From Anaerolineales bacterium UBA5796 (lineage in GTDB: Bacteria > Chloroflexota > Anaerolineae > Anaerolineales > Villigracilaceae), in contig DIDQ01000119.1 of assembly GCA_002418215.1 (NCBI GenBank), forward strand, positions 1-64,000: a stretch of 64,000 nucleotides of DNA, read 5' to 3'. This document shows positions 842 to 15,364 of this stretch, one piece after another (positions within the stretch are counted from its first letter, which is position 1; every line of letters begins with the position of its first letter). Under the pieces are notes generated by a model. The model did no database searches. It saw only the letters and a list, made by a program, of their open reading frames with translations, and had not been told where the DNA came from. A program made the position numbers and the translations under genes.

Positions 842-1243
842 ATGGCACGAAAAATTCAGGCCTGGGTAGAGTTCGGGCCGCGCCTGGAACCGAGGGAACC
901 GCTGGATGCGGAGGGGCTGATCCTGCGCATTGTGCAGGCCACCAACCAGAGCCGGGGCAGCGTCAAAGCCATCCTCGACGAACTGGACAGCCAGCTCGAA
1001 ATTGCCCTGCAGGAAGGCACCATCGTGCAACTTCCCAACGGCATGCACTTCCAGCCGATCGGCAAGCGCAACGGCAAGATAGAAATCAGGGTACGCATCA
1101 ACCCGGACCTGCTCAAGCGCATCAATGCCATCTTCCGCGGCAAATGGCGCAACCCGGAGAATATCGGCAAGACCGAGGATGAGATCTTCGACCAGTGGGA
1201 TGCGGCCCATCCCGGCGACCCGGTTGACAGGAGCAGCCTCTAA
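842..1243 (+). CDS. Hypothetical protein (133 aa)
   Basis: Clean ORF with an AAGGAG Shine-Dalgarno 8 nt upstream. A strong intrinsic terminator follows it. No recognisable motifs. Confidence 0.6.
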   Translation: MARKIQAWVEFGPRLEPREPLDAEGLILRIVQATNQSRGSVKAILDELDSQLEIALQEGTIVQLPNGMHFQPIGKRNGKIEIRVRINPDLLKRINAIFRGKWRNPENIGKTEDEIFDQWDAAHPGDPVDRSSL

Positions 1244-1733: not shown

Positions 1734-2198
1734 TTAACTAGACCTTGTAACACCTCTGATTTCGCTGCTGGAAGTATTTTCAACCAACCAGGTAGCAATT
1801 TTTTTTATTAATTCATCGAAATCCAGTTTTTTTCTTCCCTTTAAGGCGCATTCCCAAATTATAAGGACTTTCCATCCCAATTTTTTCAATTCAGCAATAT
1901 TTTTTATGTCTCGCTCTTGGTTTCCTGTAATTTTCCCCCCCCAAAATTCCGGACGAGTTGACGGCCACTTAAATAAATGGCAATCATGCCCATGCCAGAA
2001 ACATCCATTGATTTGAATTACTGCCCTATATTTTGGAAATACCAGATCGGGCTTCCCCGGGAGAGATGCAACATGTAAGCGATATCGAAATCCTCTTTTG
2101 TGGATGGCTGTGCGTATTCTGATTTCCGGTTTTGTATCTTTCCCCTGAATTCCTGACATCATTTTACTTCTGGTTTCAGGTGAAACTACATCGGTCAT
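1734..2198 (-). CDS. vsr: Very-short-patch-repair endonuclease (Vsr)
   Basis: About 150 aa with a conserved FWHGH motif and the overall Vsr pattern (KPD/E ... F.HGC.WH). It lies in an operon with a Dcm methyltransferase. Confidence 0.85.
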   Translation of the reverse strand: MTDVVSPETRSKMMSGIQGKDTKPEIRIRTAIHKRGFRYRLHVASLPGKPDLVFPKYRAVIQINGCFWHGHDCHLFKWPSTRPEFWGGKITGNQERDIKNIAELKKLGWKVLIIWECALKGRKKLDFDELIKKIATWLVENTSSSEIRGVTRSS

Positions 2199-2206
2199 AT
2201 TTCAAC

Positions 2207-3532
2207 TTACTCCAGCAACATTAACATGCCTGGCCTGGATGTTTGGCGAGCAAGCCAGGCTTGCAAATCTGTAAAAGCCTGTCCCCGCATACGCAAGAAT
2301 GCCTTTTTATTTTTTATTTTTTCTAGTTCAATAGTTATCACATGTCGAGCGCTGAAAAAGAAATAATATTCGCCAGCCGGCAACGGATCGTCTAAAAATA
2401 CAGGCCCAAACTTTAAAATAAATTCAGCCTTCTTGATCTTCGCTTTTTCTGTGGCAGGTATAAGGATACCGGCTACAAAACGAGCAATACGAATATTATT
2501 CTGGGAATGATCACAAGAAGCATTTACTTCCACTATTACAGATTTGGAAACAGGTTCCAGTGCAGCCCTATAGGCATCTTTTTGATTTTCCTTGCAATTC
2601 ATAAAATCATCTAAAACTTCTTCAATTGAAGGAACATGTGCCCATTTTTGCGATAAGTCTAAATATATATTCCCGGCATAAAATCGCTTCGTTTCATCTA
2701 CAGCCAAATGTAACATAGTATTTAGTTTTGCTTTGGCGCGTATATCTTTGCTTGAAGACGAATTCATAATTTCAGCAGAGTACGGAGAAAGAGATTTATT
2801 TACTTTGGAGTTATTACTTTCCATTCGATCAGAATGTAATGGATTTAGAGAACCATACAGAGCATTCAAACAAAGATTGGCGTCCAGTTGTTTCCCAGCC
2901 TCAGCTTCTGCCATCGCATGTAACAATTGCAGGAATTGGGTATTCCAGGCACTGCGCCATTCCGCTAGGCTTTTTGTATCATTGCTTGTAAGAGCAGATA
3001 ACGCATTTGTGACCATTGTAGCTGCTTTATGGCTATTTTCCTCCCATACTTGAAGAAGTAATAAAGGACTAAAGCTGTTCAATTCAGTTTGGATTTTGGA
3101 AAGGATAAGTTTTATGTTCAGGTTGCCTTTGATATCTTTACATTCTGTTTTGGTTAAACGAGAAACAAAGACTGGGTTTGGAATATTGGGTTCTGTAAAC
3201 ATAGTTTCTTCAAACAATTCTTGCAGTTCAGGATGTTTTGTCCATACAAGGACTCCGTATGGACCGTTATCCGGTCGCAATATCCCCATCACATACATAA
3301 GCAAAGTTGACACTTTTGATTTGTCTGAAGAAACTCCACCATCTAGCAAATCCATATCCAGGATTGCTAATCTTACACCAACCAATCTTTGACTTTTTAG
3401 TGGAAGTGCAGTTCTGGTTCCATCAAAATATGTGGAAGAAATGCCTAGTTTTGAAAGTCCTTTGAGCATTGGAAGGGCTTCCTTTTCATCATCATCAACA
3501 ACGATAACCCTTGTTCCACTTAATCCATTCAT
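2207..3532 (-). CDS. Receiver (REC)-domain protein with a ~300-aa C-terminal domain of unknown function
   Basis: The N-terminus reads RVIVVDDDE (acidic pocket), LAILDMDL (candidate phospho-acceptor Asp) and TKHP (Lys-Pro). The C-terminal 300 aa carry no recognisable motif. The ORF overlaps its neighbours by 4 nt, so it is co-operonic. Confidence 0.6.
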   Translation of the reverse strand: MNGLSGTRVIVVDDDEKEALPMLKGLSKLGISSTYFDGTRTALPLKSQRLVGVRLAILDMDLLDGGVSSDKSKVSTLLMYVMGILRPDNGPYGVLVWTKHPELQELFEETMFTEPNIPNPVFVSRLTKTECKDIKGNLNIKLILSKIQTELNSFSPLLLLQVWEENSHKAATMVTNALSALTSNDTKSLAEWRSAWNTQFLQLLHAMAEAEAGKQLDANLCLNALYGSLNPLHSDRMESNNSKVNKSLSPYSAEIMNSSSSKDIRAKAKLNTMLHLAVDETKRFYAGNIYLDLSQKWAHVPSIEEVLDDFMNCKENQKDAYRAALEPVSKSVIVEVNASCDHSQNNIRIARFVAGILIPATEKAKIKKAEFILKFGPVFLDDPLPAGEYYFFFSARHVITIELEKIKNKKAFLRMRGQAFTDLQAWLARQTSRPGMLMLLE

Positions 3533-5679
3533 TTTTTATTTCCTCCAAAGATCAATGCAACGACGGCTCCGTTAAATTCGTCAGGAAGAGAAATCTCTCC
3601 AATTTCTGGAAAAACTAACCGCCCCCCTTGAGCTTTCATAACCTGATCAGCAAGGTGCAATCCAAGTCCCATGCCATCCGGCTTTCTGCTAATAAATGGT
3701 TCAATTAAGTACTCAGGAGGATCAACAAACCCTGGGCCATTATCTGCAATCACAATTGCTGGTCCTTGGTCAAATTCCTTAGTCATTCCGATATAGATTT
3801 TCTTCTTATCAACTTGTTCTCCCCATTTGTTATCCAGCCACCAAATCGAATTATCAATTATATTCATCAGAGTTGATATCGTAAGTCGTTTGCTGCAATT
3901 GGTTTCAAAATTACCTTGCCTTGTATCGGAAATTAATTTTATGTTGTGGTTCTTAAGTCTTAACTCGGTGTTAAATACTGCCTGAGAGATCATAGTTCCT
4001 GCTTTTTCACGAGTTATCCCCGATCTTCTTATAAGGCTGGCAAAACCTTCGACTAAATCTGCCAAATGCTTTGCTAAATTTCTAATGCGGGGGCTGGCCT
4101 TTTCTTCTTGCACAGCTCTTGAAAGTTCATCTATCCCTTTTTCTACTTCATGAATAACTATTGAAAGACTTAACCCGGCACTTGCGCTTGTCAAAAAACG
4201 ATCTCGGATAAGAATAAAGTCAGATTCAATCCTGTTAATGTATGGTCCAAGTTCACTTGTTAGTTTTTTCCTTTCTATAAGGTTGCGTAACTCGGAAAGG
4301 TCTTCAATAACCGGTTCTTTGATTTTTTTACTACTGTATGCATTCCGAATACGTGTCTTGTCTTTGTTACGCTCGGCTTGTATTTGAACAACCGCTTCGG
4401 TAACTGCGTCCTTGAAAGCTCGAAATGCTTCATTGTCTACAAAACCTTCTCGATTTGTTTTTTCAATTAAACCTGAACTGGCCTCAATATCTAAGGACGC
4501 AGCCCCAACTACCAAGTTGTTACTTATTCGCTGTGTTGGCACATTCACTCGTTTTCCGCCTAAATTCAGCCAATCATTGCCAGGTTCTCCATAATCATAA
4601 ACCCGCATCCCGGCTCTATACACTCGTATTCCGCCAGACTCGTCAAGAAAATCTTTCAGCCCTTGTTTATCCGTTACTCCAAGTGATAATATTTTAGGCT
4701 CACGGTCAAAAATATAAAGATCAATATGGATTGGCCCAACTTCTCTTAGAAGAGTTTTGCTTGAAATATCCTTCGGTAAATCGAGCTTTACATTTTGAAC
4801 ATTTCGAGCATCGATTTTGTCTAGCATGGCAGGCAATGGGACAAATGAATAATTATAAAAAAGCTTAACAGTTTGAGTGTTATCCGGGTCTGCCTCTATA
4901 TCGCAGTTTGCACGAAATAGAGAATATTCCAAAACTGTTTCCACCGTCAACAATTTATCCAACCAATCTTTATTCTCAGTAAGCACGAGTTCAGTATTGA
5001 ATTCCCCGATTTCGTCAAAAGGTGAACAAATTGACATTACCGCACGTGCAAGTTCCCGAACCATGCCTCGGTTCCATACATTGCGTAGATTCTCAATTTC
5101 GATTTTTGTTCCTGTCTGACTCCCGGTAAAAACTTGCGGTTCTCGTTCTACAACTACAACGGGAACATCTTCTAAATATTTATGTTTTGTAAAATCGTTC
5201 CAATCTATCTCAACAAAAACTTCTGGCTGTTTTTTTTTGCGTGTGACTAGTCTGACCTTCAATCCCAATTTATGAGCAGCAAACCGGCCAACACCTTTCT
5301 CGCCAAGTGGCAAGCGGCCATATTTTGGCGTCCTTTCATCATTCTCTCGTTGTTTAGCTTTATAGTCAGTTCCGGGCTCAAGCCATACGTGTGTAACAGT
5401 ATCAAAATCCATACCAATCCCTGTATCTTCCACCGTAATCAAACCCTTATTCTGGTCAGTCAAGTTTGACATTGTTACTTTTACACCAGGGGAGTCCGCA
5501 TCATACGCATTTTTAACTAACTCAAACACCGCAATTCCGGGATCCTTGATAAGCTGATCACCTAATAGTAACAATAATCTAGCTCGTGGGCGGAAAGTAA
5601 ACTCATTTGTCATGGCGCTCTTCCCATCTTGATGAGGCATTTTATTATCTTCATCCATTTTTAACCAAGCTCTTAACAA
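3529..5679 (-). CDS. Dual GHKL-ATPase protein. The N-terminus is a MORC/MutL-like HATPase_c_3 domain; the C-terminal half is a histidine-kinase-like H-box plus HATPase_c domain.
   Basis: The N-terminal Bergerat-fold motifs are ELVKNAYDA (N-box) and DTGIGMD (G1). The middle region has IVIHEVEKGIDEL, a candidate H-box. The C-terminal motifs are LMNIIDNSIWW (N), IADNGPGF (G1) and GMGLGLHLA (G2). The true start may be an internal Met. Confidence 0.65.
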   Translation of the reverse strand: MLRAWLKMDEDNKMPHQDGKSAMTNEFTFRPRARLLLLLGDQLIKDPGIAVFELVKNAYDADSPGVKVTMSNLTDQNKGLITVEDTGIGMDFDTVTHVWLEPGTDYKAKQRENDERTPKYGRLPLGEKGVGRFAAHKLGLKVRLVTRKKKQPEVFVEIDWNDFTKHKYLEDVPVVVVEREPQVFTGSQTGTKIEIENLRNVWNRGMVRELARAVMSICSPFDEIGEFNTELVLTENKDWLDKLLTVETVLEYSLFRANCDIEADPDNTQTVKLFYNYSFVPLPAMLDKIDARNVQNVKLDLPKDISSKTLLREVGPIHIDLYIFDREPKILSLGVTDKQGLKDFLDESGGIRVYRAGMRVYDYGEPGNDWLNLGGKRVNVPTQRISNNLVVGAASLDIEASSGLIEKTNREGFVDNEAFRAFKDAVTEAVVQIQAERNKDKTRIRNAYSSKKIKEPVIEDLSELRNLIERKKLTSELGPYINRIESDFILIRDRFLTSASAGLSLSIVIHEVEKGIDELSRAVQEEKASPRIRNLAKHLADLVEGFASLIRRSGITREKAGTMISQAVFNTELRLKNHNIKLISDTRQGNFETNCSKRLTISTLMNIIDNSIWWLDNKWGEQVDKKKIYIGMTKEFDQGPAIVIADNGPGFVDPPEYLIEPFISRKPDGMGLGLHLADQVMKAQGGRLVFPEIGEISLPDEFNGAVVALIFGGNKK

Positions 5680-6679
5680 CCTTTGTCATCACTGGAGGAC
5701 ATACACCATTCCCCATCAACTTAATTCGATCACGTCTGGTTAATCCAGGAATACTGTCTAACTGAAAATCTGGTGTAAAGCCCATCGCCAACTTTAATTC
5801 TTCCGGTTGTAGCATCCTCATCACATGTCCATTTTCACTTGGCGTTACATAGGCAAAGCGATCAAGTGTAGTAATTGTGCCTAATGGCTCCTCAATACTT
5901 TGCCAGCCTTTATTTTTTTTGCGTCCGGAACCATAATACACGAGCAAGAATGAAGTGTTATTGCCAAGAACTGAAATTGCCCGTTCAGCCGAATGAATTG
6001 TATTTTCTGCTCTGCCCGGTTTTCTCAAAGGAGTGAATTTATATTTTCCAGAATTATCAATAATTGTTGAGGCTGGTTTGGTAATGACATATTCGGCGGC
6101 TGGTTCCGCTGCTTTTCCAGTCAAGGAACACAATAAAAACAAACGCTCTCGTGACTGAGGAACACCCAGATTTTTAGCATTAATTATCGTTTTTTTTACA
6201 AAATATTTCAATTCCCATAAATTTTCAAGCAAGTCCTTAAACTTATCCCATGATTCAAATTCAGTCACATTTTCAATAACCATCCATCGTGGTCTAAACA
6301 CTCTGGCAAATCGAACAGCCTCAAATGCTGTCATTTTGCTTTCTTCGTCTCTTTCAGCATTCCCCTTTGCCTTGGAATGATTTGTACATTCGGGGGATGC
6401 CAGGATTAAATCAATATTACCGATTGACGATTTAAATTGGCGAATCTCTTCGTCTGTTAATTTTTGCAAGTCTGTCTGGAATACCTCAGCTTTAGGGAAA
6501 TTTGCCTTATATGTTTTTATTGCCAAATCCCACATATCAAATCCAGCAACAACATCAACACCAGCTTTTGTTGCTCCAAAGCTGCTTCCACCTGCACCGC
6601 AGAACAAGTCAATTGCTTTGATTTTTGTCTCATACATAAGCTTATCCTGTAGTTTCCTTAAAGCATAAACACTTGCCAA
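5651..6679 (-). CDS. dcm: DNA (cytosine-5)-methyltransferase (Dcm family)
   Basis: Motif I is DLFCGAGG. Motif IV is PC, read as ASPECTNHS. Motif VI is ENV. Motif VIII is QSRERLF. Motif X is GNGV. Confidence 0.9.
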   Translation of the reverse strand: MASVYALRKLQDKLMYETKIKAIDLFCGAGGSSFGATKAGVDVVAGFDMWDLAIKTYKANFPKAEVFQTDLQKLTDEEIRQFKSSIGNIDLILASPECTNHSKAKGNAERDEESKMTAFEAVRFARVFRPRWMVIENVTEFESWDKFKDLLENLWELKYFVKKTIINAKNLGVPQSRERLFLLCSLTGKAAEPAAEYVITKPASTIIDNSGKYKFTPLRKPGRAENTIHSAERAISVLGNNTSFLLVYYGSGRKKNKGWQSIEEPLGTITTLDRFAYVTPSENGHVMRMLQPEELKLAMGFTPDFQLDSIPGLTRRDRIKLMGNGVCPPVMTKVVKSLVKNG

Positions 6680-7118
6680 CCTCTAATCGTTTTTTGCTTG
6701 TTGGCACATACCACGCGTTCATTCTTTTATCCCAGGCGCGTATTTGTAAAAATTGTTCCCATGAAAATTGATAGAGAGCATTAAGAGTATAGTCGGGAGC
6801 CAATATCACGATCAATAGGTATTCAAAAAGCTGTTTATCCGGGTTTTGTTCATCAGGGTAAATAGTTCCTGTTTTACTACCCTTTTGAATAGTTTTGATT
6901 GAAAATCTTTCCCCATTTCGTGAAAGCGCATCCACATTTTTTGATCCTGGTGCGGATGCCGTTAAATTAGATAGTCCAGGTGTATTACGAAAATAATTTA
7001 TTGCAGCAGCTTCTCCGATTTCACCCACTGAAAAAGAAAGACCTCGGGTGCGCATTTCCCGCTCGACTTCAATTCGAAGTGATATTAGTACATCATCGTT
7101 CAGGGTTGTTATATCCAC
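6642..7118 (-). CDS. Hypothetical protein (158 aa); first gene of the island operon
   Basis: AT-rich ORF overlapping the dcm start by 38 nt. It has a weak PD-(D/E)xK-like pattern (VDAL ... ERFSIK) that could not be confirmed. Confidence 0.45.
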   Translation of the reverse strand: MDITTLNDDVLISLRIEVEREMRTRGLSFSVGEIGEAAAINYFRNTPGLSNLTASAPGSKNVDALSRNGERFSIKTIQKGSKTGTIYPDEQNPDKQLFEYLLIVILAPDYTLNALYQFSWEQFLQIRAWDKRMNAWYVPTSKKRLEVGKCLCFKETTG

Positions 7119-7377: not shown

Positions 7378-10300
7378 ATGCTTCAAAAATTTGTCAATAT
7401 TTTCGGGGGCGACCCCAATAAAAAAGAAATCAACAAGATCAGCGAGATCGTCGAGCAGGTCAACGCCTTCGAGCCGCAGTTCGAAGAACTCAGCAACGAC
7501 GCCTTGCGCGCCAAAACGGACGAGTTCCGGGCGTTGTTGAAGTCTGAGTTGGAAGGCGTCGAGAACGAAGACGAGCGCAAGAAAATCGAGCAGGCCGTCC
7601 TCGACGAGCTCCTGCCCGAGGCCTACGCCGTCGTCCGCGAAGTCTCGAAACGGACCCTGGGCATGCGTCCCTTCGACGTGCAGATGATCGGCGGGATCGT
7701 GTTGCACCGGGGCCAGATCGCCGAGATGCGCACCGGCGAAGGCAAGACCCTGGTCGCCACCCTGCCGATCTACCTCAACGCCCTCACCGGGCGCGGCGTC
7801 CACCTGGTCACGGTCAACGATTACCTGGCCCGGCGTGACGCCCGCTGGATGGCCCCCATCTACCACTTCCTCGGCCTGTCAGTGGGCGTGCTGCAAATGG
7901 CTGCCGCCACCGAGAACGGCAAGAAAGCCTTCATCTACGATCCCGAAAAAGAATCCACCCAGGAAGACCAGCACCAGTTGCGCCTGGTGGACCGCCGCCG
8001 GGCCTACGAAGCCGACATCACTTACGGCACCAACGCCGAGTTCGGCTTCGATTACCTACGCGACAACATGACCATGCGCCTCGAAGACCGCGTTCAGCGG
8101 GGCCACTATTACTGCATCATTGACGAAGTGGACAACGTGCTGATAGACGAGGCCCGCACCCCGCTCATCATCTCCGGCCCAGCCTCGGGCGACCTGGAAT
8201 GGTACGGGCGCATGGCCCAGATCGTCAAGCAACTCAAGCCTGAAGATTACGAACTGAGCGAGAAAGACCGCAGCATCTCGCTGACCGAGATAGGCGTGGC
8301 CCACGTCGAACAACTGCTCGGCCAGCCGCTGATGGACCCCGACCGGCCCGAAGACCTGAACCCGGAGCAGGCCCGGCTGATGGGCTACCTCGAACAGGCC
8401 CTGCGCGCCCAGTACCTGTTCCACCGAAACAAGGATTACCTCGTCCAGGCTGGCAAGGTGGTCATCGTGGATACCTTCACCGGCCGCCTGATGCCCGGAC
8501 GCCGCTGGAGCGACGGCCTGCACCAGGCTGTGGAAGCCAAGGAAGGTGTGCGGGTGGAGCCTGAGAACATCACCTACGCCACCATTACTCTGCAAAACTA
8601 TTACCGCATGTACGAAAAACTCTCCGGCATGACCGGCACCGCCCTGACCGAGGCCGAAGAGTTCAGCAAGATCTACAAACTCGAAGTCCTGCCCATCCCC
8701 ACCAACCTGGAACACAACGCCACCCGTCCCGGCTCGCCGCTGGTGGAGCGCAAGGACAAGGACGAAGACGGCTACGAGTATTCGTTCTTCATGCCAAGAG
8801 ACGCCACCTCCGATAACGGGCCGGTGCTTTGGCGGCGCAAGGATTACCCCGACGTGATCTTCCGCTCGCAGGAGGCCAAGCTGCGCAACATCGTGCGCGA
8901 GGTGGTCTTCAACCACGCACTTGGGCGTCCCCTGCTGATCGGCACCACCTCGGTCGAAAGTTCCGAGCGCCTGTCGGAGCGGCTGCGGGCCGAACCGGTG
9001 CGCCGCCTGATGCAGGTCCTGCTTATCCGGGATGCCTGGATGGGGGCCAACGGCCGCGAAGAAGACGGGCGGCTCATCCCTGAACTTGTACCGTTGAACG
9101 CGCCCCTCGAACGGATCCAGGCCCCGGACCTGCGCCAGTTCGCCCGTCCGCTGGAGTTATCTCTCAATCCCGAGGACCAGGCCAACCTGTCGCGGTTGAT
9201 CGAACTGCTGGGGTTGTCGGCGGAGAACCATGACCGGCTGAAGTCGGTGCTCCAGGGCGGAGTCCCGCATCAAGTTCTCAACGCCCGCAAACATACTGAG
9301 GAAAGCCAGATCATCGCCGGGGCGGGCGCGTTCGGGGCAGTGACCATCGCTACCAACATGGCCGGTCGCGGGGTGGACATCAAGCTCGGCGGCGAGATGG
9401 CCGAGGAGATCATTGCCATCGTCAACCGGGTGCTGAAACGCACCGAGGCCGAAGACCCCTACGAGATGAGCATGGAGGAGCGCCGTCAGGCCCTGCTCAA
9501 GCTCGACCCCTCGGAATACGGCATCTACGAAGCCGAGATCAAACACTTTTTGCAATACTTCGAAGACATGGCCCAGGTGAAAGCCCTGGGCGGCCTGCAC
9601 GTGATCGGCTCGGAACGCCACGAAGCCCGACGGATTGACAACCAGCTGCGCGGCCGCGCCGCCCGCCAGGGCGACCCCGGCTCGTCGCGCTTCTACCTCT
9701 CGCTCGAAGACGACCTGATGCGGCTCTTCGGCGGGCAGCAGGTCAGCGGCTTGATGGACCGCCTGAAAGTGGACGAGTCGCTGCCGCTGGAGGCAAAGCT
9801 GGTCAGTAACATCGTCGAAGGCTCGCAGCACCGGGTGGAAGGGGCCAACTTCGACGTCCGCAAGCACCTGCTCGAATACGACGACGTGCTCAACTCGCAG
9901 CGCGAACGCATCTATTCGCAGCGCGACCGGGTCTTCACCAAAGACGACCTGACCGACGACGTGGCCGGCATGCTCCAGGCCGAGGTCGAGACCCGCGTCC
10001 CGGCTGCCCTGGCCGACGAGGAAGGCCCATGGAAGCTGCTGGCCTGGCTCGAACAGACCCAGCCGACCTTCAACACCGCCGACGGGCTGTTCCCGTCTTA
10101 CACCTATCGCCTGCTGCTGGACGAGATCGAGGACGGCAGCCGCGAACAGATCCTGTCCCTGGTGCGCCGGGCCGTCGAGACCGAGAACGGGCACATCTGG
10201 CGCGCCGTCGCTGCCACGATAGACCGCACCGCTGAAAGCCTCGACAGCCAGATGGATGAACGCCGGGAGGCCCTGGAGACCTTCCTGGAGGCCCTGGGCG

Positions 10301-11391
10301 ACCGCGATGAGACCGACACCCGCCGCCCACAGGAACTCCTCGAGGAATTGCAGTCCCTCGCCCGCGTGCCCCTGCGCCTGAACAACGAACAACTGCGCCA
10401 ACTGGCGGACGACCCCGAAGGCCTTGCAGACGATATCGAAGAACAGGTCGAACAGGCGCTCACCGCAATTGCCGTCTCCCGCCTGCTGTCCACACTCGAA
10501 TACCGCCTGGGCGAATCGCTCAGCCTCGACAAGAACATCCTGGCCCGCCTCGAATGGGACGAATTGGTCGGGAAGATCACCGGCGCGGCCCGCCGGGCGC
10601 TCGAGGGCCGCCTCGAAATGCTGGTGAGCCAGGCCGGGCGCGACCTCGACATCCTGCTCCAGCGCGGCCGGCCGCAGAGCGACGATGAACGCATCCGCCT
10701 GCTGGGGTCGCTTTCCCAGGGGTCCCGCACCGCCTTCGACGCCAAAACCCACCGCCAGGTCCGGCAATCCTTCGCCCGCTTCAATTATCTCTTCCTGGCC
10801 GCAAAATTGCTGGAAAACCGCAGCGATGGAGCCGTGGCCGAGGACGTGCTGGAGCATCTCGAAATAGCCCAGGAGACGCTGGGACGCGCCTGGGGGACCA
10901 GCGAATACGCCCGCCTGTCCCGGAACGCCGCATCCCTCGCGGACTTTGGGCCGGCTGCCGCTATTTTCACCGAGTCGCGTCGGGAGGCATCTCCCGCCTC
11001 CCTGTCTGACGAGGAGCGCGAGACCCTGATGGAGTCGCTCAGCCGCGCCGTCCAGACCCAGATCTACCGCCAGGTGCTGCTCAACGCCATCACCGAACTC
11101 TGGGTGGAGTACCTGACCAAGGTCGAAGCCCTGCGGGTTGCCATCGGGCTGGAGGCTTACGCCCAGCGTGACCCGCTGGTACAATACAAGACCCAGGCCT
11201 CCGAAATGTTCCAGAACCTGCTGGGCGATATCCGCTCAGCGGTGGTCAGCCGCATCTTCCTGTACCAGCCCCGGGCTTACGCCGCCGCCCGCATCGTCGA
11301 AAGCGAAGAAACCGTCCTGTCCCAGCCCCAGCCGGTCACGGCCGCGGCCCAGGACGGCGGCAAAAAGAAAAAGAAGCGCAAACGACATTAG
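7378..11391 (+). CDS. secA: Preprotein translocase ATPase SecA; unusually long at 1337 aa, with insertions in NBD2 and a Lys/Arg-rich C-terminal tail that has no zinc finger
   Basis: It carries the Walker A motif MRTGEGKTLVA, the DEAD-like motif DEVDNVLIDEARTPLIIS and the conserved SecA motif RGRAARQGDPGSSRFYLSLEDDL. The tail ends GGKKKKKRKRH with no cysteines. Confidence 0.95.
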   Translation: MLQKFVNIFGGDPNKKEINKISEIVEQVNAFEPQFEELSNDALRAKTDEFRALLKSELEGVENEDERKKIEQAVLDELLPEAYAVVREVSKRTLGMRPFDVQMIGGIVLHRGQIAEMRTGEGKTLVATLPIYLNALTGRGVHLVTVNDYLARRDARWMAPIYHFLGLSVGVLQMAAATENGKKAFIYDPEKESTQEDQHQLRLVDRRRAYEADITYGTNAEFGFDYLRDNMTMRLEDRVQRGHYYCIIDEVDNVLIDEARTPLIISGPASGDLEWYGRMAQIVKQLKPEDYELSEKDRSISLTEIGVAHVEQLLGQPLMDPDRPEDLNPEQARLMGYLEQALRAQYLFHRNKDYLVQAGKVVIVDTFTGRLMPGRRWSDGLHQAVEAKEGVRVEPENITYATITLQNYYRMYEKLSGMTGTALTEAEEFSKIYKLEVLPIPTNLEHNATRPGSPLVERKDKDEDGYEYSFFMPRDATSDNGPVLWRRKDYPDVIFRSQEAKLRNIVREVVFNHALGRPLLIGTTSVESSERLSERLRAEPVRRLMQVLLIRDAWMGANGREEDGRLIPELVPLNAPLERIQAPDLRQFARPLELSLNPEDQANLSRLIELLGLSAENHDRLKSVLQGGVPHQVLNARKHTEESQIIAGAGAFGAVTIATNMAGRGVDIKLGGEMAEEIIAIVNRVLKRTEAEDPYEMSMEERRQALLKLDPSEYGIYEAEIKHFLQYFEDMAQVKALGGLHVIGSERHEARRIDNQLRGRAARQGDPGSSRFYLSLEDDLMRLFGGQQVSGLMDRLKVDESLPLEAKLVSNIVEGSQHRVEGANFDVRKHLLEYDDVLNSQRERIYSQRDRVFTKDDLTDDVAGMLQAEVETRVPAALADEEGPWKLLAWLEQTQPTFNTADGLFPSYTYRLLLDEIEDGSREQILSLVRRAVETENGHIWRAVAATIDRTAESLDSQMDERREALETFLEALGDRDETDTRRPQELLEELQSLARVPLRLNNEQLRQLADDPEGLADDIEEQVEQALTAIAVSRLLSTLEYRLGESLSLDKNILARLEWDELVGKITGAARRALEGRLEMLVSQAGRDLDILLQRGRPQSDDERIRLLGSLSQGSRTAFDAKTHRQVRQSFARFNYLFLAAKLLENRSDGAVAEDVLEHLEIAQETLGRAWGTSEYARLSRNAASLADFGPAAAIFTESRREASPASLSDEERETLMESLSRAVQTQIYRQVLLNAITELWVEYLTKVEALRVAIGLEAYAQRDPLVQYKTQASEMFQNLLGDIRSAVVSRIFLYQPRAYAAARIVESEETVLSQPQPVTAAAQDGGKKKKKRKRH

Positions 11392-11406
11392 AAATCCGGT
11401 GTCCAG

Positions 11407-12453
11407 TTGAAAAAAGACAAGACAACGGCCTCTCTCAATATTTATAAGGTATTGCCCAAGGTCGAATTGCACCGCCACCTGGAGGGATCGCTGCGTATTG
11501 CCACCATGCTGGAGATCGCCGAACAGCACGGCGTCACCGTCCCGCCCAGCATCGTGGACTTGAGCAGCCTGGTCCAGGTGCAAGATGAAGAGCCGTTCAC
11601 TTTCACCAATTTCCTCGAAAAATTCAAAACCCTGCGCCTGTTCTACCGCTCGCCGGAGGTGATAGACCGCATCACCCGCGAAGCCATCGAAGACGCGGCC
11701 CGCGACAACGTGCGCTACATGGAACTGCGCTTCACGCCGGTGGCCCTCAGCCGGGCCGAGGGTTTCCCGCTCCACGACGTGATGGCCTGGGTCTGCAAGT
11801 CCACCCGCAGGGCCGCCGACGAATTCGGCATCACCGTGCGCCTGATCGCCTCGGTCAACCGCCACGAGAGTGTCGAACTGGCCGAGCAGGTGGCCTGGCT
11901 GGCCGCCGGTCACATCGAAGACGGCATCCTGGGCCTCGACCTGGCCGGGAACGAAGCCGAGTATCCCGCCAGGCCGTTCGAAGGCATCTTCAAGGAGGCC
12001 CGCCAATCCGGCCTGAAGACCACCGTCCACGCCGGGGAGTGGGGCGGCGCGCAAAATGTGGGCGAGGCCATCCAGGTGTTCGACGCCGACCGCATCGGCC
12101 ATGGCGTGCGCGTCCTCGAAGACCCGTCGGTGGCGGCGCTGGCCCGCGAGCGCGGTGTCGTGTTCGAGGTCTGCATCACCAGCAACCTCCAGTCCGGCGT
12201 GGTGTCCGCCGTCAGCGCCCACCCCCTGGCAGCCATGCTTGGGTCCGGGCTGAACGCCACCCTCAACACCGACGACCCCAGCGTCTCGCGCATCACCCTG
12301 ACCCACGAGTTCAAGCTGGCCGCCGAAGACCTGGGCCTGCCGTTCGAGGCGCTCAAGGAACGGGTGCTGGCCGCGGCCAGGGCCTCCTTCCTGCCGGATG
12401 CCGAGCGTATGCTGCTGGTCGCAGAAGTGGAAAGCAAATTGGCTCGCTTATGA
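11407..12453 (+). CDS. add: Adenosine deaminase
   Basis: Contains ELHRHLEGS, SVNRHES and HAGE metal-ligand motifs. The start is TTG. Confidence 0.85.
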   Translation: MKKDKTTASLNIYKVLPKVELHRHLEGSLRIATMLEIAEQHGVTVPPSIVDLSSLVQVQDEEPFTFTNFLEKFKTLRLFYRSPEVIDRITREAIEDAARDNVRYMELRFTPVALSRAEGFPLHDVMAWVCKSTRRAADEFGITVRLIASVNRHESVELAEQVAWLAAGHIEDGILGLDLAGNEAEYPARPFEGIFKEARQSGLKTTVHAGEWGGAQNVGEAIQVFDADRIGHGVRVLEDPSVAALARERGVVFEVCITSNLQSGVVSAVSAHPLAAMLGSGLNATLNTDDPSVSRITLTHEFKLAAEDLGLPFEALKERVLAAARASFLPDAERMLLVAEVESKLARL

Positions 12454-12628
12454 CGCCACCACGCAGGCGCAAAGACCGTCAAAGGCGCTCCTTTGCGGAT
12501 TTTGCGATTGTGTGGTGACCTTTAACCACCCTCACCCCACCCCTGCTTTGGTGGTCGAGTAGGACGAAGTCCGCCTCGAGACCAGGGAGAGGGGCAAGGG
12601 GCGAGGGATCAGACCAAAGGAGACTCCC

Positions 12629-15364
<2,736 letters not shown>

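Follow-up and report, generated by a model that had tools for sequence, protein, structure and literature searches.

Background

Divergent receiver proteins (PF19192) are paired with kinases that combine HATPase_c_3, a His-box and HATPase_c (HEF_HK, PF19191), and the pairs sit downstream of C5 methylases and upstream of Vsr genes; the C-terminus of the PF19192 proteins carries no known domain (Bellieny-Rabelo et al. 2021, PMC8011034). A protein of this GHKL plus kinase type in Escherichia coli UTI89 was noted earlier by Orlowski & Bujnicki 2008 (PMC2441816). Here we describe a pair of similar architecture in a 64,000-nucleotide stretch of Anaerolineales bacterium UBA5796 (contig DIDQ01000119.1, positions 1 to 64,000; "the window" denotes this whole stretch). 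Its receiver protein, encoded at 2207..3532 and called the target protein below, has a C-terminal domain that is predicted to fold like the MazF/CcdB toxins. We tentatively favour, at somewhat less than an even chance, the reading that it is a phosphorylation-gated, toxin-like effector, most likely acting on RNA, of a dedicated cytoplasmic two-component pair. The type of system is known bioinformatically and, in related form, experimentally; the target family lies outside the published models.

Two validated defence systems are relevant here. Ambrosia, a phage defence, consists of an N6-methylase, a HATPase kinase, a REC protein, a type IV HNH nuclease and an XRE protein; the D60A exchange in its receiver protein AbrC abolishes defence, infection induces the methylase and nuclease positions, and the authors propose an induced nuclease that targets the system's own mark (bioRxiv 10.1101/2025.09.30.679545). 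Detocs is a defensive two-component system whose receiver protein bears a toxic effector, with abortive infection as the outcome and with exchangeable effectors (Rousset et al., bioRxiv 10.1101/2023.01.24.525353).

Receiver domain

The target protein and its parts are located as follows.
2207..3532, minus strand: target protein, 441 amino acids (aa), ATG start; REC domain, helical bundle and predicted MazF/CcdB-like domain
3137..3532, minus strand: receiver (REC) domain, residues 1-132, with the D13/D14 acidic pair, phospho-acceptor D59 (codon 3356-3358), T98 and K128
2693..3127, minus strand: acidic all-helical region, residues ~136-280, five long helices; W163, E164, D235 and N271 conserved
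2210..2548, minus strand: basic domain of predicted MazF/Kid/CcdB fold, residues ~329-441; R416, R433 and G435 conserved in its C-terminal part
2480..2521, minus strand: conserved loop, residues 338-351, consensus P-x-C-D-x-A-Q-x-K-x4-R

An earlier note on this DNA had called the open reading frame (ORF) at 2207..3532 a receiver-domain protein, and both the reading frame and the domain are borne out. The AlphaFold2 model (predicted local distance difference test, pLDDT, 92.3; predicted template modelling score, pTM, 0.85) has the (beta-alpha)5 fold of the CheY-like REC superfamily. Conservation was measured on two alignments, one of 63 close and one of 107 distant and diverse homologues. D59 is invariant in both; conservation of at least 90% is reached by D13 and K128 in either set and by D14 and T98 in the close set. 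Among the motifs listed in the earlier note, "DDD" and "LDMDL" hold, and "TKHP" holds for T98, the conserved Thr after beta4; its Lys does not, position 99 being K, N or A, and K128 of "LTK" is the conserved receiver lysine. The Pfam models Response_reg (PF00072) and Response_reg_2 (PF19192) retrieve nothing from the target protein even at E<=1. The receiver domain is thus real but divergent.

Output region

No recognisable motif and no helix-turn-helix had been seen in the C-terminal ~300 residues, which agrees with our searches at the sequence level: the target protein has zero matches in Pfam, NCBIfam, PADLOC and PHROGs, and zero among the PDB sequences, which were searched with the single sequence and with a profile. 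A second model, of residues 136-441 (pLDDT 93, pTM 0.84), consists of five helices, a short linker and an alpha/beta domain at ~329-441. The last ~110 residues of this model match MazF/Kid/CcdB/CptN toxins in the structure search, and the SH3-like barrel with C-terminal helix of the MazF/PemK/CcdB fold is present in the predicted model. The top Foldseek ranks against the PDB are CcdB (probability 0.99) and five MazF structures (0.82-0.98), with weak E-values; the TM-scores of the MazF matches relative to the target are 0.55-0.62. For the helical region at ~136-280 no specific structural match was found. Two ideas for this region were rejected: a HEPN domain ([KR]-x5-H around H275), as H275 is not conserved in the 107 sequences and no HEPN fold was matched, and an HPt-like phosphotransfer helix bundle, as H233 is not conserved in the same alignment.

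The 107-member alignment, at ~19% identity, contains invariant or near-invariant W163, E164, D235, N271, G287, C340, D341, G355, R416, R433 and G435. C340 and R433 are conserved in 100% and D341 in 99% of the members, while P338, Q344, R351 and R414 range from 79 to 87% (R351 82%). The conserved loop at 338-351 sits between strands 1 and 2 of the MazF-like domain. In MazF, the loop between these strands holds E24 and the catalytic R29. An hhalign comparison with MazF, Kid, EndoA, S. aureus MazF and ChpBK (of these, only the E. coli MazF sequence was confirmed in the PDB) gave a non-significant E of 0.19, with a collinear placement of P338-x5-Q344...R348/R351 over the P19-x5-Q25-x3-R29 loop of MazF. 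Being non-significant, this mapping is taken as a hint only. R348 and R351 fall in the MazF-equivalent loop, and a counterpart of the Thr/Ser after strand 3 was not identified in the target protein. C340, D341, R351, R416 and R433 are candidate catalytic residues of the output domain.

Charge is distributed unevenly along the protein throughout the family. The MazF-like domain has a median isoelectric point (pI) of 9.6 and a net charge of +6, the receiver domain a pI of 5.3 and the helical region a pI of 5.2. Basic MazF is neutralised by acidic MazE. By analogy, the basic domain beside an acidic helical region may recall a toxin masked by its antitoxin.

The earlier note had proposed a nuclease or another DNA-targeting effector and had suggested a search for PD-(D/E)xK, HNH or phospholipase-D folds. 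Neither these nor GIY-YIG have any likeness to residues 136-441 by sequence or fold, and the toxin folds were matched in their place. Among MazF, Kid, CcdB and CptN, one toxin poisons gyrase and the others are endoribonucleases; none is a DNA endonuclease. Of the proposal, the effector role finds support (a conserved output region that is not DNA-binding) and the DNA nuclease does not. Neither LytTR nor any other DNA-binding domain was matched, and conserved candidate catalytic residues are present; an enzymatic effector therefore stays plausible, though of another kind than the note had put forward, and the output region is probably an effector rather than a transcription factor.

The same evidence bears on the idea that the C-terminal region is a DNA endonuclease of new fold, serving as the restriction subunit in a restriction-modification system that is protected by the methylase and driven or regulated by the GHKL kinase. 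REBASE-style lists do class such GHKL proteins as putative restriction enzymes (R.EcoUTORF4938P, HgiDII/BbrUII; cleavage domains unassigned), the triad with a C5 methylase is conserved, and the C-terminal domain is basic with conserved acidic and basic residues. The absence of any of the four nuclease likenesses in residues 136-441 speaks against it, and without model coordinates no obvious metal-binding acidic cluster could be placed. Moreover, the characterised relatives of the matched fold act on RNA or gyrase, and we know of none that cuts DNA. We regard this alternative as improbable.

A further possibility is a non-catalytic adaptor or poison, in which the MazF/CcdB-like domain would bind gyrase (as CcdB does), the MORC-like clamp, the methylase or Vsr, and phosphorylation would tune the binding. 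It gains from a partner kinase that is itself a GyrB/MutL-class ATPase and from the canonical MazF catalytic residues, which are not clearly conserved. The invariant C340-D341 and R433 at ~19% identity, however, suggest a chemical rather than a binding role, and the consistently basic charge better fits binding of nucleic acid, so that we consider the adaptor or poison improbable.

Family size and distribution

Close homologues of the target protein form 117 clusters with 33-62% identity, all ~440 aa long and all labelled "hypothetical". A profile search of 1.84 billion representatives retrieved 1,932 at E<1e-3 and 933 at E<1e-30, and nearly all of the distant representatives align end to end. 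Hosts are mainly uncultured Chloroflexota, Acidobacteriota and Desulfobacterota, besides plasmids of Agrobacterium, Rhizobium and Burkholderia. The longer members (490-550 aa) were searched for extra domains, and none were found.

Partner kinase

3529..5679, minus strand: cognate kinase, 716 aa; MORC/paraMORC-type GHKL ATPase (residues ~45-210), middle region, DHp helix with H510-E511 and C-terminal histidine kinase ATPase domain

The start of the target ORF overlaps the stop of this upstream ORF by 4 nt. Pfam assigns HATPase_c_3 (3e-17) to the N-terminus of the kinase, besides HATPase_c. The N-terminus also matches the NCBIfam BbrUII/HgiDII GHKL domain (3e-20), the C-terminus (residues ~523-690) is covered by many NCBIfam histidine-kinase models, and the PDB matches are HK853/NtrB. 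Both sets of Bergerat ATP-binding motifs, the H510-E511 box and the N/G1/G2 boxes are conserved in 18 kinase homologues. By these motifs and matches, the partner qualifies as a genuine histidine kinase whose sensor is MORC-like.

The pairing is strict. In tblastn searches the kinase immediately precedes the target homologue in all 27 loci, corresponding to 24 distinct loci including the window, and the kinase stop and the target start lie no more than a few bases apart in each of the 24. Conservation across the loci is 39-72% for the kinase versus 24-52% for the target protein.

The kinase middle region (residues ~350-460) contains the conserved motifs GGxRxYR...DWLxL...RxNxP and EKxNREGF and matches the uncharacterised phage family phrog_8137 (1.7e-20). 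This region probably forms the S5/transducer-like portion of the MORC-type module.

The low-GC island and related loci

Three further genes complete the island, and an HU-like gene lies just outside it.
1734..2198, minus strand: Vsr very-short-patch repair endonuclease, 154 aa; last gene of the operon (Pfam Vsr 1e-30, TIGR00632 2e-42)
5651..6679, minus strand: C5 cytosine DNA methyltransferase (Dcm-type), 342 aa (Pfam DNA_methylase 6e-41, TIGR00675)
6642..7118, minus strand: BisI-family-like PD-(D/E)xK endonuclease homologue, 158 aa; first gene of the operon, overlapping the methylase gene
842-1243, plus strand: HU-HIG / HU-related DNA-binding protein homologue, 133 aa (Pfam 1.9e-6); just outside the island

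The five genes, in the operon order BisI-like endonuclease, C5 methylase, GHKL-histidine kinase, target protein and Vsr, lie on one strand and overlap or abut. Their island (1734-7118, 5.4 kb) has a guanine-cytosine (GC) content of 39.5%, versus 63.6% in the adjoining secA and ~62-65% in the surrounding genome region. This five-gene low-GC operon is a mobile, horizontally acquired cytosine-methylase defence island. A tRNA gene and flanking direct repeats were sought at its borders, and none were found. The AT-richness that the earlier note had ascribed to the effector domain is real and island-wide: the receiver and C-terminal parts are alike (38.0% and 38.9% GC, respectively) and the whole island is low in GC, so that the bias is a property of the acquired island, not of the output domain. 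The alleged richness in Lys and Asn does not hold, as K (7.8%) and N (7.2%) are both ordinary.

A repeat array occupies positions 1313-1446, flanked by the HU-like gene (842..1243) on one side and the end of the operon on the other. It contains five copies of the perfect 14-nt palindrome TCGAACTAGTTCGA, of which one deviates by a single mismatch, and a degenerate sixth. The spacing is exactly 22 nt, zero copies are expected by chance, and the rest of the 64-kb window lacks the palindrome. The array could serve for protein binding or mark a border of the island.

The best PADLOC match of the C5 methylase is DISARM DrmMII (7.6e-97, full length), and the island holds no other DISARM gene. The 158-aa protein matches the PADLOC model of Type II methyl-directed restriction endonucleases (3.8e-50) and, weakly, the BisI-family enzyme Eco15I (PDB 8q5m, E 0.05), in an alignment that pairs the catalytic D and xK positions.

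A C5 methylase is present in all 18 loci with enough flanking sequence (of the 24 distinct ones), and Vsr in about half of the related loci. BisI-like homologues adjoin the module in L008, L018 and L024, besides the window. Genes of the MspJI/AspBHI type, with AspBHI_N and Mrr_cat domains, lie next to the C5 methylase in five more loci.
L004: 3614-4939
L005: 3530-4705
L013: 2614-3954
L015: 2616-3956
L019: 2469-3776
The module of methylase, kinase and receiver protein is thereby accompanied by an endonuclease of a 5-methylcytosine (5mC)-dependent type in 9 of the 24 distinct loci, the window included. An enzyme of this type beside a C5 methylase is a paradox for a classical restriction-modification system. 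The earlier note had offered the output domain as the place of a missing restriction activity; with a 5mC-dependent-type endonuclease as the first gene of the operon, and in 9 of 24 loci, restriction activity is not missing from the island.

L001, L011 and L014 consist of methylase, kinase and target homologue, with or without Vsr, and contain no endonuclease. As the output domain of the target protein is the sole uncharacterised conserved domain in these minimal loci, it is the natural candidate for the output of the system. On an Agrobacterium plasmid (L026) a second defence-like block is found downstream of the kinase-receiver pair (8718-13505), with a DEAD/DEAH helicase, an EcoRII-N-domain protein, an ATP-binding protein and an HNH endonuclease, followed by a type II endonuclease, Vsr and dcm.

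Comparison with described systems

The island resembles the PF19192/PF19191 pairs in gene content and gene order: a C5 methylase is followed by a kinase with HATPase_c_3, His-Glu box and HATPase_c, by a divergent receiver protein whose C-terminus is unannotated and, often, by Vsr. The locus of E. coli UTI89 comprises a dcm methylase, a 986-aa ATP-binding kinase and a 555-aa protein with "response regulator receiver domain", and served as positive control (PF19192 1.8e-29, PF19191 1.5e-25). It corresponds to the REBASE putative enzyme R.EcoUTORF4938P; the pair and its methylase (L030, 4,836,000-4,841,692) lie in a pathogenicity-island region beside cdiBAI and remnants of insertion sequences. 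Neither PF19192 nor PF19191 matches the window proteins (E<=1), 20 distant family members, or the homologues from Agrobacterium and Burkholderia plasmids. Sizes differ too: target family proteins of 440 aa with a 716-aa kinase compare with 555 and 986 aa in the PF19192 type, the receiver protein being ~110 aa shorter. HMMER profile-to-sequence comparison of the two families is non-significant, and hhalign aligns the receiver segment with E 0.02 and the C-terminal segment with E 0.007 over 110 columns. Both families possess an invariant P-x-C-D that is followed, close to the C-terminal end, by an invariant R-x-G. Given Pfam models that are not reached, weak cross-family scores and ordered PxCD/RxG motifs in common, we regard the target family as a remote sister of PF19192, not as a member by the Pfam criterion.

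The likeness to Ambrosia is one of composition only: in either case one cluster unites a methylase and a modification-dependent-type endonuclease with a HATPase-type kinase and a receiver protein. In Ambrosia the receiver Asp, D60, is needed for defence; in the target protein it is D59. The methylase of Ambrosia is of the N6-adenine kind, its nuclease is a type IV HNH enzyme, and the system includes XRE, whereas the island has a C5 methylase, a BisI-like PD-(D/E)xK enzyme and Vsr; a Pfam scan found no XRE-type match among the five island ORFs. AbrC is reported with a winged helix, and none was found in the target protein by Pfam or fold search. Plasmid searches for the Pseudomonas Ambrosia example yielded only a degraded remnant from Pseudomonas syringae.

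These comparisons bear on the foremost alternative, the reading that the phosphorylated target protein is an Ambrosia-type regulator, harmless itself, which would switch on the methylase and the 5mC-dependent endonuclease, by transcription or by protein contact, so that DNA is marked and cut only during infection. The validation of Ambrosia, the loss of defence in AbrC D60A, the induction of its methylase and nuclease positions and the phospho-acceptor D59 of the target protein all fit, as do the nine loci with a modification-dependent-type endonuclease next to the module. Against this, the target protein has no DNA-binding domain that we could find, more than half of the loci are without such an endonuclease, and a plain DNA-binding output would need neither the invariant Cys-Asp nor a toxin fold. 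With five genes that overlap or abut on one strand, in a single-operon layout, it is not evident how nuclease and methylase would be transcribed under separate control. We hold this regulator possible but rather doubtful.

With Detocs the target protein shares the kinase-to-receiver architecture in which, as predicted here, an effector replaces the usual DNA-binding output. In Detocs the kinase DtcA carries a TPR sensor, DtcB is a stand-alone receiver that acts as buffer, and the effector is mostly a PNP ATP-nucleosidase; the island has none of the three, and a stand-alone receiver gene and a PNP domain were looked for there and not found. Unlike the target island, Detocs has no link to a methylase. 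PADLOC gives no match for the target protein (the presence of Detocs models in this PADLOC release was not verified).

The predicted output domain has its basic character in common with MazF/Kid(PemK)/CcdB and the type III toxins ToxN/AbiQ/CptN, and its conserved residues lie in the loop between strands 1 and 2 where, by a weak alignment, MazF has the catalytic Arg. It differs from these toxins in being fused to a receiver and a helical region, whereas the toxins are paired with a separate antitoxin, in its invariant Cys-Asp, and in having no significant sequence similarity to them. The N-terminus of the kinase resembles the GHKL domain of the BbrUII/HgiDII restriction enzymes over residues 51-212 only, at 72 bits versus a cut-off of 550 bits. 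HgiDII and BbrUII are single chains with a different C-terminus and, unlike the kinase and target protein, have no partner for His-Asp phosphotransfer. The neighbourhood of methylase and Vsr is common to the island and the MORC/paraMORC systems (Iyer et al. 2008, PMC2292703; PMC2441816).

Proposed mechanism

In the preferred reading, of the target protein as a toxin-like effector, the MORC-like GHKL module of the kinase would sense a DNA-related cue, e.g. invading or wrongly marked DNA, the kinase would autophosphorylate on H510, and the phosphate would pass from H510 to D59 of the target protein. The phosphorylated receiver domain might then release the basic MazF/CcdB-fold domain from the acidic helical region, or assemble it by dimerisation. 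The freed or assembled domain would act as a toxin-like effector, most likely by cleaving or binding RNA, with growth arrest or abortive infection as the outcome. The strict pairing with the kinase, the charge pattern, the conserved loop, the minimal loci and the precedents of Detocs and Ambrosia support this reading.

Several points weigh against it. The likeness to MazF is structural only and comes from a predicted model, the sequence-profile comparison was not significant, and neither PemK/CcdB Pfam models nor PDB sequences gave a match to the output region. The catalytic Arg/Thr pair of MazF could not be mapped with confidence, R351 being 82% conserved and a Thr not evident. An invariant Cys-Asp is, to our knowledge, no feature of MazF, and its presence in a MazF-like domain may point to another chemistry or to a role in binding. 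The separate endonuclease in 9 of the 24 loci is a possible real executioner. The authors of Ambrosia prefer a role of the receiver protein in controlling transcription and observed no toxicity to the host (bioRxiv 10.1101/2025.09.30.679545). No experiment on any member of the target family was found in the literature searched.

A wider picture, which we judge unlikely, is a restriction-modification-like immunity with a signalling cascade as its "restriction" arm. A MORC-like clamp would read the methylation or the state of DNA, His-to-Asp phosphotransfer would follow, and a MazF-superfamily domain with novel Cys-Asp chemistry would execute; in a sizeable subset, coupled 5mC-dependent endonucleases would turn the system's own methyl mark into a death signal.

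Implications

Kinase-receiver pairs in methylase islands were catalogued in 2021 without a known output, and the related Ambrosia was shown in 2025, with a mechanism that is debated. From predicted models, the output domain of a large sister family (~1,900 representatives, outside the existing Pfam models) can now be assigned a MazF/CcdB toxin fold; no such assignment for the target family was found in the literature searched. Together with the invariant Cys-Asp loop, identified here as common to the target family and PF19192, this putative fold provides a concrete, mutable hypothesis for the action of such systems. Should the hypothesis be wrong, a clean annotation of a five-gene defence island remains. 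The recurrence of the module beside methylation-dependent endonucleases suggests a general design in which methylation is a weapon, not a shield.

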